Shown here piece after piece: positions 58,382 to 63,792 of a stretch of 64,000 nucleotides of DNA (positions are counted from its first letter, which is position 1; each line of letters starts with the position of its first letter). Where the stretch lies: assembly GCA_011526095.1 (NCBI GenBank), contig WYBA01000414.1, positions 10,622 through 74,621 of the forward strand, written 5' to 3'. The translations under genes and the position numbers were made by a program. Under the pieces are notes generated by a model. It ran no database searches and had not been told where the DNA came from. It saw only the letters and a list, made by a program, of their open reading frames with translations. The stretch is from Myxococcales bacterium. Lineage in GTDB: Bacteria; Myxococcota_A; Polyangia; Haliangiales; Haliangiaceae.

Positions 58382-59692
<1,311 letters not shown>

Positions 59693-59726: not shown

Positions 59727-59779
59727 AGAAAAACAAGAAGGGCCTGGATGGTTCCCCATCCAGGCCCTCTTGTTTGTCG
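59727..59779. terminator. bidirectional intrinsic terminator (18-19 bp stem)
   Basis: AGAAAAA-ACAAGAAGGGCCUGGAUGG-UUCC-CCAUCCAGGCCCUCUUGU-UUGU, with an A-run on one side and a T-rich run on the other. Confidence 0.8.
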
Positions 59780-60718
59780 ACAGCCACAACGGACCGCTCG
59801 ACCCGACGTTTCCCCTTCGAAGGTTCGAGGCTACCTGCATCCAGCCGCGGGCTCGTCACCGAGTCACGGCGCCCTCTCGTGGAGTTCACTGCTCTTCAGA
59901 GTCTTGTATGTACCGACGTACCGGGCCTGTTGGGTTGGCCCGATCCCAGATCCTTGCCTCGTCGTTTCCGACGGACCGCGATGGTCTTCCGGCGGTACCG
60001 GTCCCCCTCTACTTGCGCAGAGGGGTTCATCCTCTCGTGAGCTTCGCTCTCCTTCAGAGTCCCTTCGTGCAGTCACCTGTCCGTGCGCTCGCGCGCCCGG
60101 ACGCCTTCCGTGGGGTTTCCTCCCTCTTCACGACGTCAGCTGCAGAGTCCACATGCCGACGGACATCCCAGGTCCGTCTTCGTTCCGCCCTCGACGTTTC
60201 GCACGTCCTCGACGGGTTCCTCCTCTGCTGGCCTCGCGAGTCTGTTTCGCCTCGCTGCCGTGTCCAGGGTTCTCGCTCCAGGGGATTGTTCTCCCGACCA
60301 GTTCGTACCGGCTCGTCGCCGGCCGTTCCCCTCTCGCCGTTGGCGCCGCCGCCTGCCGGTTTCCCGGCGCCAGCAAACGTCGCGTCGACCTCAGGGGGTT
60401 GCTCCTGATCGTGATCCGACGTGTCCGCGGGGCGGTTTAGACCCGCGCGTCACCCGTATCCCCTCCTGCGTTTTCAGCTCCCTCGGGTCTGTCTCCAGAG
60501 ACCTGGCAGGTGCCATCACACCCGCTCCGCTCACGACCTTCTCCGTTCGGCGCTACGTGTGCCCCGCGCGGTCGGTCCCCAGCGTGTCGATCAGTCTCCA
60601 GCCTGTCGCTCTGTCCCCAGAGCGTCTCCCCGTTCGAGCTTCCTCGCCTGCGCTCGGGATCGCTCCCTCCCGCGAGGCTCGTCGTTGGTGCGAGCGGTCC
60701 GGTGTGGCCGCCGACGGA
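59776..60718 (-). ncRNA. candidate large (~0.94 kb) structured non-coding RNA, family unknown
   Basis: No protein-like ORF in six frames. Minus strand is purine-rich. A 25-bp 5'/3' closing helix pairs 60691-60715 with 59776-59800. Stem-GNRA hairpins at 59960-59973, 60355-60368 and 60656-60667. There are three GACUCUG modules, a sigma54-type element upstream and a terminator immediately downstream. Confidence 0.45.
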
Positions 60719-60728
60719 GCGGACATAG

Positions 60729-60744
60729 AGCATCCGGCGTGCCA
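60729..60744 (-). promoter_or_regulatory. sigma54-type -24/-12 element TGGCACgccggATGCT
   Basis: 10 of 11 matches to TGGCAC-N5-TTGCW on the minus strand. The predicted TSS is about 60717-60720, i.e. 2-5 nt before the 5' arm of the closing helix. Confidence 0.4.
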
Positions 60745-61017
60745 GCCACAGACGGCCCACAACCCCACGAGATCCAAGTTCCGGATTGCATTGAACAATG
60801 TAGGCGGTGACGACAGGGGTGTGGACAACCTGAGCAGTGACTGTGCCGCGCTCACACCCGAGCGACGGACCATCAACGAGTTGCTCGTGCGGTGTCGCCG
60901 CGAGCGACACGTGTGCCGGGAGCGTGCAGACGCGCGAGTCATCTTCGCCGGTGGTATCGTGCGCGCGCCCGCGGCGCACGTCGCGCGCGGGCGAGCGATC
61001 GAGGAGGCTGCATCGCC

Positions 61018-62382: not shown

Positions 62383-63792
<1,410 letters not shown>

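Follow-up and report, generated by a model that had tools for sequence, protein, structure and literature searches.

A promoter-to-terminator gene for a large, highly structured noncoding RNA in a Myxococcota genome, and its relatives in environmental sequence data

The 64-kb stretch of Myxococcales DNA analysed here (contig WYBA01000414.1; hereafter the window, to whose positions all coordinates refer) contains an RNA locus in the gap between an HD-domain gene (58382-59692, plus strand) and a lipoprotein gene (from 61018, plus strand). Read on the minus strand, the segment ~60718-59730 is almost certainly a single-copy, stand-alone gene for a highly structured noncoding RNA (ncRNA) of ~0.95 kb. 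A discrete, ~940-nt structured RNA on the minus strand had been proposed in an earlier note made from the sequence alone, and it is supported here by gene signals and covariation as well as by the lack of Rfam matches, of a coding signal and of dispersed copies. The lower G+C content and purine-rich minus strand described in that note were also recovered, with a G+C of 0.63-0.69 at the locus vs. 0.71-0.79 in the flanks and an AT skew down to -0.46. The computed fold energy of the minus strand is -487.6 kcal/mol (z = -6.8), and the plus strand has z = -5.0. The predicted transcript is ~990 nt long with the terminator hairpin and ~943 nt from its start to the end of the closing helix, P1. Homologous loci or contigs compared with the window are labelled L001, L009 and so on. 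The features that delimit the gene, with its candidate upstream sites, are the following:

59730-60718, minus strand: predicted primary transcript, bounded by promoter and terminator
60729-60744, minus strand: sigma54-type promoter TGGCAC-N5-ATGCT, TGGCACGCCGGATGCT, with GG at 60743/60742 and GC at 60731/60730
59727-59773, minus strand: intrinsic terminator hairpin and U-run, bidirectional, common to this gene and the convergent HD gene (stop 59692)
60892-60908, minus strand: inverted repeat TGTCGCTCGCGGCGACA (TGT-N11-ACA) with a conserved GCGCTCCCGGCAC ahead of it, candidate upstream activator (enhancer-binding protein) site
60820-60828, minus strand: TTGTCCACA motif (TTnTCCACA), DnaA-box-like, second candidate regulator site

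The structure is carried by covariation. In an alignment of 22 distinct window-type sequences (A2, 51-88% identity), RNAalifold gave 179 pairs, 115 of them with compensatory change, and the 12 full-length sequences bring in P1, for a total of 233 pairs in 44 helices. With the 233-pair structure, 91.8% of the cells in A2 are paired, vs. 77.2% after shuffling (0 of 500 as high) and 38-45% when the structure is slid; 148 pairs are changed on both sides, vs. 99 shuffled and 63-79 slid, and the covariation score is 0.427, vs. 0.181 shuffled and below 0.10 slid. The third domain was also assessed in 107 distinct sequences from all clusters of the wider family described below, having 94.8% of cells paired (71% shuffled, 40-53% slid), compensatory changes in 35 of its 40 pairs (28.1 shuffled, 15-22 slid) and a covariation score of 0.494 (0.142 shuffled). 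G-U cells number 527 and A-C cells 87, therefore the RNA strand is the minus strand of the window. The RNA thus has four domains with about 40 helices inside P1, held by compensatory substitutions. Covariation had been named in the earlier note as the check on its closing helix and GNRA hairpins, and was strong for both. The elements of the structure, in the order of the RNA, are:

60690-60715, minus strand: P1 closing helix, 5' arm (repeat finder and covariation)
60477-60678, minus strand: domain I (helices 3-12), absent from L011
60280-60464, minus strand: domain II (helices 13-21), including the GCCGG-GAAA-CCGGC hairpin at 60355-60368
60122-60269, minus strand: domain III, the universally conserved core (helices 22-28; covariance model R1 and covariation)
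60185-60215, minus strand: invariant hairpin CCGUC-GAG-GRYGU-GNGAA-ACRYC-GAG-GGCGG, inside domain III
60167-60169, minus strand: GGG of the helix 28 loop, candidate for a kissing contact with the helix 42 loop
59812-60115, minus strand: domain IV (helices 29-44; consensus structure)
59932-59934, minus strand: CCC in the AACCCAAC loop of helix 42, candidate partner of the helix 28 loop
59776-59801, minus strand: P1 closing helix, 3' arm (repeat finder and covariation)

The 25-bp end-to-end helix of the earlier note was reproduced with its exact pair counts, its 25-nt arms (60715-60691 and 59800-59776) forming 22 Watson-Crick pairs, 2 G-U pairs and 1 mismatch, and the same arms were listed by the repeat finder. 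They occur as two copies only in the window, vs. 0.00 expected. As an RNA helix, P1 (helices 1-2) has 23 pairs, 10 of them changed on both sides, with 85-92% of cells paired, so the helix covaries. Inside P1, domain I is dispensable, because it is absent from L011. Domain IV is closed by the pairing of CCCC..GAAGG (60115-60104) with CCUUC..GGGG (59823-59812) and holds two stacked CUCU-GAA-GRRS / SYYC-ACG-AGAG helices. The hairpin at 60215-60185 in domain III has a symmetric GAG/GAG internal loop and a GNGAA loop; its unpaired residues and its outer stem are invariant in all 22 sequences, and the inner stem covaries (e.g., GC in 13 and AU in 9). Here it is proposed that this hairpin is the functional centre of the RNA.

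A search for extra covarying stacks (pseudoknots) added a single short nested helix and a single candidate contact between loops, which is invariant, a kissing contact of 60169-60167 with 59934-59932. The pairing between the helix 28 and helix 42 loops is possible in 20-21 of 21-22 sequences; the contact is a candidate and unproven, lacking covariation support because both loops are nearly invariant. Among the five hairpins listed in the earlier note, those at 59960-59973, 60355-60368, 60158-60178 and 60004-60025 are supported by covariation, and the fifth, GGGA-GCGA-UCCC (60656-60667), falls within variable sequence and lacks conservation. The three parallel GACUCUG...AGAGG hairpin modules of that note are mostly strands of long-range helices instead: the CAGAGTC copies at 60055 and 59897 are opposite strands of long-range helices (60059-60049 with 59884-59874, and 60042-60032 with 59901-59891), and the copy at 60143 pairs with 60233-60223. 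As a separate observation, the domain III covariance model gave weak second matches of 22-37 bits in L118 (19-182), L122 (800-940), L109 (106-245) and L214 (1085-1224). These second matches lie elsewhere in the same RNAs and hint that duplication of a domain within the RNA contributed to its growth.

The locus was also considered as a decayed pseudogene, an unannotated protein gene or a small-RNA precursor, all of which appear very improbable. The earlier note had reported only short open reading frames (ORFs) in the gap; this did not hold, as the plus strand has stop-free runs of 230 and 324 aa, and gene callers had annotated ORFs of 230-315 aa at the locus. These long plus-strand ORFs are composition artefacts. 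In each of the three antisense frames the stop-free runs are long, as the antisense strand is poor in A. The column entropy by codon position is 0.64/0.60/0.66 at the RNA locus, without 3-nt periodicity, vs. 0.30/0.27/0.54 in the HD gene used as control, and of the 409 gap runs, 346 have lengths not divisible by three. Only 21 weak look-alikes of the long antisense ORF were found; none has a Pfam domain, and they sit on contigs of 821-1269 nt, which match the RNA in length. Searching via the spurious ORFs for further genomic contexts yielded no DNA. No intact ORF and no coding signal were found in the homologous loci. A protein-coding gene or pseudogene was rejected for the lack of periodicity, the out-of-frame indels and the lack of Pfam-bearing homologues. 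For a precursor speaks the length of P1, since a helix of this length is a possible RNase III substrate; however, full-length contigs recur across independent assemblies.

The sigma54-type element at 60729-60744, noted earlier from its sequence, is the sole TGGCAC-N6-TGCW site in the window, vs. 0.10 expected. It agrees with the -24/-12 promoter form TGGCAC-N5-TTGCW, with GG and GC 10 nt apart, and its fixed distance is kept in homologues: GG-N10-GC is invariant in 14 of the 14 homologues that reach 5' of P1, always 12-16 nt ahead of the 5' arm, and the element is likewise present in nearly all matches within the fetched loci. A distant 1.7-kb member on a 12-kb genomic contig (L197) has TTGGCACGGAAGCTGCA at the equivalent promoter position and a canonical terminator past its 3' arm. 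By the standard -24/-12 geometry, the transcription start is predicted near 60718, 12 nt past the GC at 60731/60730. As a side observation, several relatives that lack the RNA (L025:3911-3926, L034:3884-3899, L047:3861-3876 and L051:3855-3870) have a minus-strand TGGCAC-N6-TGCW just upstream of the HD start, directed towards a divergent FdhD-like gene.

Two conserved motifs lie further upstream. The TGT-N11-ACA repeat is ~150-165 nt upstream of the -24 element and is kept in the Kofleriaceae-clade copies (the window, L009, L010, L011, L016, L017, L018, L086 and L123); it would serve as an activator site. TTnTCCACA is ~85 nt upstream of the -24 element; nearly every DNA copy has it at about this position, even the distant L159, L160, L183 and L197. 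The spacing of the two motifs (85-165 nt upstream) is typical of enhancer-binding-protein sites, and both are regarded as candidate sites only. TTnTCCACA also fits the DnaA-box consensus (60820-60828 in the window and the same position in L016, L183, L018, L159, L160 and L197), L016 and L183 having a perfect DnaA box, TTATCCACA.

At the other end of the gene, the intrinsic terminator that had been noted beside the 3' arm was found as a 14-bp G+C-rich hairpin (59769-59738) followed by a U-run (CTTGTTTTTC / CUUGUUUUUC), as expected of intrinsic terminators. The hairpin covaries among the window, L009, L010 and L123, and other subgroups have different 3' ends. For the RNAs of cluster 1, one of the environmental clusters, P1 followed by a U-run was tried as the terminator and rejected, because the U-run pairs with a 5' GGAAAG and hence is part of P1. 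In a near-identical strain variant (L001:9572-9748), the HD stop codon is followed by ~143 bp of extra sequence ahead of the shared terminator, with a perfect 14-bp palindrome (GATCCGGCCGACGG…CCGTCGGCCGGATC); this insert lies outside the RNA and resembles a small insertion of the repetitive extragenic palindromic (REP) type or the miniature inverted-repeat transposable element (MITE) type.

By its HD protein the organism belongs among Kofleriaceae-like Myxococcota, and the order of HD gene, ~1.3-kb gap and lipoprotein gene is kept in three relatives. The gap nucleotide identity and HD protein identity are 84% and 90% in L009, 76% and 78% in L010, and 72% and 75% in L011, that is, the conservation of the gap is coding-like despite being a non-coding stretch. 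In the Kofleriaceae locus L087 (5360-5960), an inorganic-pyrophosphatase-like gene, identified by eye from its translation, occupies the place of the RNA between HD and lipoprotein. The lipoprotein gene was considered as a linked partner and rejected, its synteny being clade-specific and L087 having the lipoprotein without the RNA.

A non-autonomous mobile element (MITE-like, derived from an insertion sequence (IS), or an ORF-less intron) bounded by the 25-nt inverted repeats could account for these terminal repeats, for the patchy presence among related genomes, for the different gene at the site in L087 and for the tandem copies in some contigs. This explanation is largely refuted and has very little probability left. 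The element has one copy in the window and one per long contig; blastn against 72,556 plasmids and 50,697 phage records gave no match, and the dispersed, arm-bounded copies that would mark such an element are missing from the window, the long contigs and both collections. The arms of the inverted repeat show the covariation of an RNA helix, including G-U pairs specific to one strand; the conserved promoter lies outside the repeats and there is no group II intron signature. The position beside the HD and lipoprotein genes is stable at 75-90% protein identity, and the RNA diverges in step with them. A MITE or non-autonomous IS was rejected on the single copy, the covarying arms with G-U pairs and the promoter outside the repeats.

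Beyond the Kofleriaceae clade, metagenome contigs were searched with a 30-nt signature from the invariant domain III hairpin (CGTCGAG-N3-GTG-N-GAAAC-N5-GGGCGG), and at least 120 with this core signature were found; L198 was rejected as a member, being a chance signature match inside a 962-aa ORF. Among the matches listed, the family hidden Markov model (HMM) matches 104 contigs, and covariance model R1 of domain III gives full-length matches of 50-170 bits in almost all environmental members. These matches form several sequence clusters, one of window type, and two large clusters and many singletons that are more distant; most of the contigs are 1.0-2.1 kb long, purine-rich throughout and without a promoter. 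Domain III is thus conserved in at least 100 environmental relatives, from 0.75 to ~2.1 kb, which also have paired termini, and the family exceeds every described ornate bacterial ncRNA in size.

The contigs of one cluster start within ~15 nt of each other and have a common end point, and the first and last nucleotides of the family contigs pair with each other. The DNA contigs (the window, L160, L197 and L207) continue past the single-copy gene on both sides. Because their ends match the paired termini and the DNA contigs run through the gene, the short contigs are best read as assembled whole RNA molecules. The only match in a viral collection, L214 (1-5118, IMG/VR UViG_3300035585_001331), is a chimera of a family RNA (about 300-1310) and a dicistrovirus-like ORF with RdRP_1, Dicistro_VP4 and Rhv capsid domains; given its fusion to an RNA-virus genome, this contig must stem from an RNA library. 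From the recurrence of full-length contigs in independent assemblies it can be argued that the whole molecule accumulates, and the RNA appears abundant or highly expressed in environmental data, to judge from these assemblies.

Several of the contigs are chimeric (L140, L143, L177 and L214 plainly, L203 possibly), therefore junctions in these contigs need care. L111 (1-1799) consists of two ~900-nt family units, 92.7% identical and head-to-tail, with the junction at 900/901 where P1 is expected (…CCTTCGAAGGA|GCGAGGCAGACC…) and without promoter, terminator or arm between the units; tandem repetition, circularity or permutation, or faulty assembly could each account for it. In L115 (114-3258), two cluster-1 units repeat in tandem every 1576 nt; they are 92% identical, each has its terminal arms, and a short hairpin-containing spacer lies between them.

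None of the known structured RNA families accounts for the window RNA. With Rfam 15 at gathering scores, no matches were found in the whole window or in 20 relatives, and only an adjacent signal recognition particle (SRP) RNA was found in 20 further relatives; permissive filters on the region gave only chance matches to the terminator hairpin, and 14 diverse members gave no matches at E <= 0.5. The earlier note had not recognised the RNA as any known class, and indeed no family was matched in the window or 54 relatives, including OLE, GOLLD, ROOL, raiA, HEARO, RNase P, 6S, transfer-messenger RNA (tmRNA), group I/II introns and ribozymes. The SRP RNA is of the bacterial small type (L203:966-1065, 74.5 bits) and lies ~55 nt past the 3' end of the family RNA, as a real neighbour or in a chimera of two abundant RNAs. 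A literature search on large ncRNAs of Myxococcota, RNAs of the GOLLD, ROOL and OLE type, sigma54 ncRNAs and ncRNAs of soil metatranscriptomes, with a coverage that excluded most subscription-journal papers, found no description of this RNA.

OLE RNA (RF01071) is also large (~600 nt), multi-domain, highly conserved, stand-alone and abundant, and it acts as a folded RNA within a ribonucleoprotein (RNP). However, it has no sequence or structure match with the window RNA; OLE occurs in Bacillota extremophiles and anaerobes beside its partner gene oapA, whereas the window RNA is found in Myxococcota with a sigma54-type promoter and no conserved partner gene, and its family is 1.5-3 times larger. 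GOLLD (RF01998) and ROOL (RF03087) are likewise very large and ornate, first noticed in environmental sequence and with a variable periphery around a conserved core, but their models do not match. They are typically found in prophages near transfer RNAs, whereas the window RNA is chromosomal without phage or plasmid match, the sole viral-collection match being the L214 chimera. A flank duplex of at least 20 bp encloses a large structured RNA in ribosomal RNA (rRNA) processing stems as well; however, the enclosed window RNA has no match to small-subunit or large-subunit rRNA. ORF-less group II introns are purine-rich, multi-domain structured RNAs of 0.6-1 kb or more, but no domain V/VI or D1-D4 model matched even at E <= 10, and the window RNA has its own promoter and terminator, with no flanking exons and no reverse-transcriptase ORF.

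CrcZ, GlmY and Qrr are sigma54-dependent regulatory RNAs, and CrcZ/CrcY, GlmY, Qrr and NrsZ share with the window gene the layout of activator site (a candidate in the window), -24/-12 promoter, ncRNA and terminator, as well as purine- or A-rich unpaired tracts. However, these RNAs have lengths of 90-400 nt, simple hairpins and binding motifs that recur, in contrast to ~950 nt with ~44 covarying helices and long-range closures. The window RNA is outside OLE, GOLLD, ROOL, CrcZ and GlmY, as tests for matches to the defining models were negative; it is a new RNA class without detectable relative, yet within the loose category of large ornate bacterial ncRNAs.

By analogy with such RNAs, we consider it probable, with some reserve, that the locus encodes a signal-induced, sigma54-driven folded RNA acting as an RNP scaffold or RNA machine. 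Sigma54 RNA polymerase requires an ATP-dependent enhancer-binding activator, therefore the RNA would be made only upon a specific signal, the activator probably acting via the TTnTCCACA and TGT-N11-ACA sites. The transcript would fold into a compact body, whose paired ends may protect it and allow accumulation. Its action would be in trans and that of a folded RNA, which either scaffolds protein partners or works as an RNA machine, with the GAG/GAG-GNGAA hairpin of domain III as the putative binding or active centre and with the many GNRA loops and purine-rich junctions making tertiary contacts. It would not be an antisense regulator, leader or coding sequence.

Several observations weigh against this scaffold or machine. 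The proposed function is argued by analogy, and for most of the other large ornate RNAs no function is established. Expression in the window organism and an RNA origin of the short contigs are only probable, going by the contig ends and the L214 fusion. No enhancer-binding-protein gene was found in the 64-kb window, and no partner protein is indicated. No conserved gene neighbourhood was found past the Kofleriaceae clade: L197 lies by sdhAB, L160 by a sortilin/BNR protein, and L144 by a peptidase M15 gene and a Ser/Thr kinase gene. L197 is not placeable by its SdhA, which is too conserved, with ~75%-identity matches spread over Myxococcota, Gemmatimonadota and Chloroflexota. The distribution is patchy, with 5 of 80 Kofleriaceae/Haliangiales HD loci from a species-representative genome collection carrying the RNA at the position next to HD (L014, a duplicate of L009, and L016, L017, L018 and L086). 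In most of the other loci synteny is lost past HD, therefore the element is clade-restricted at the HD-adjacent site.

The composition of the unpaired residues (A 36%, G 37%, C 20%, U 7%) is a further point of this kind. Their 73% purine, with only 7% U, and the tracts GAAGGAG / GAGGAGGAA / GAAGAGGGAGGAAAC that recur in the RNA sequence, would suit a protein sponge like CrcZ or CsrB, in which a two-component or enhancer-binding-protein signal switches the sigma54 promoter on and exposed purine-rich (GGA or ARN-like) tracts titrate a global RNA-binding protein. A stand-alone gene that is sigma54-promoted and terminator-ended, like those of the known sigma54-dependent regulatory RNAs, and the apparent abundance of the RNA are also in favour of a sponge, which is nevertheless an unlikely explanation. 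A sponge needs repeated loop motifs only, whereas the window RNA keeps ~230 pairs, 44 helices, closures and invariant internal loops down to 51% identity, an architecture far beyond any known sponge; most of its purine tracts are strands of junctions, fixed in position, and not repeated hairpin-loop motifs, and no candidate partner protein was identified.

A ribozyme, or a self-assembling RNA-only particle like the ROOL/GOLLD cages, would place catalysis or oligomerisation in the core, and the P1-less head-to-tail copies might then be circular or permuted forms. Large ornate bacterial RNAs are able to form homo-oligomers (PMC12286853). The size and ornateness of the window RNA family equal or exceed those of OLE, ROOL and GOLLD, the invariant unpaired nucleotides are concentrated in domain III, several GNRA loops and the candidate loop-loop contact are present, and in L111 the head-to-tail units are joined at the P1 site with no promoter or terminator between them. 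However, the A2 alignment and its consensus helices contain no conserved self-complementary (palindromic) hairpin loop, and no known ribozyme motif was detected in the Rfam scans. The L111 junction may also be an artefact of assembly or reverse transcription, because L140, L143, L177 and L214 of the same collection are plainly chimeric. We therefore hold the ribozyme or particle to be doubtful, and the signal-induced scaffold or machine is preferred.

Large, intricately folded bacterial RNAs are rare, comprising rRNA, RNase P, group I/II introns, OLE, GOLLD/ROOL and the IsrB omega RNA, and nearly every earlier class opened a new line of biology. The present family stands above the ornate classes in size, with very strong covariation support, a wide occurrence in environmental data and an apparently high expression. 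The Kofleriaceae copy is a defined gene: it has paired termini between a sigma54-type promoter, with candidate activator sites upstream, and a terminator. This makes testable the inducing signal, the binding partner, catalysis or oligomerisation, and the invariance of the core despite a threefold size range. It is tentatively suggested, as a broader view about which we are rather more doubtful than hopeful, that there is an undescribed superfamily of 0.75-2.1-kb ornate RNAs, of which the window holds the first example anchored in a genome and complete from promoter to terminator. This superfamily would be the largest bacterial structured-ncRNA class after the rRNAs, assembled whole in many environmental RNA data sets and switched by sigma54, and would act as a ribozyme or self-assembling RNA or RNP machine, some members perhaps being head-to-tail or circularised in place of a terminal helix.

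Elsewhere in the window, genes at 62383-63792 (minus strand) and downstream, with no evident link to the RNA, encode by their Pfam labels a 469-aa PaaA/PaaC-like protein, an enoyl-CoA hydratase-family protein and an HTH_3 plus shikimate-kinase-like regulator, and are presumably part of an aerobic benzoyl-CoA (box) cluster.

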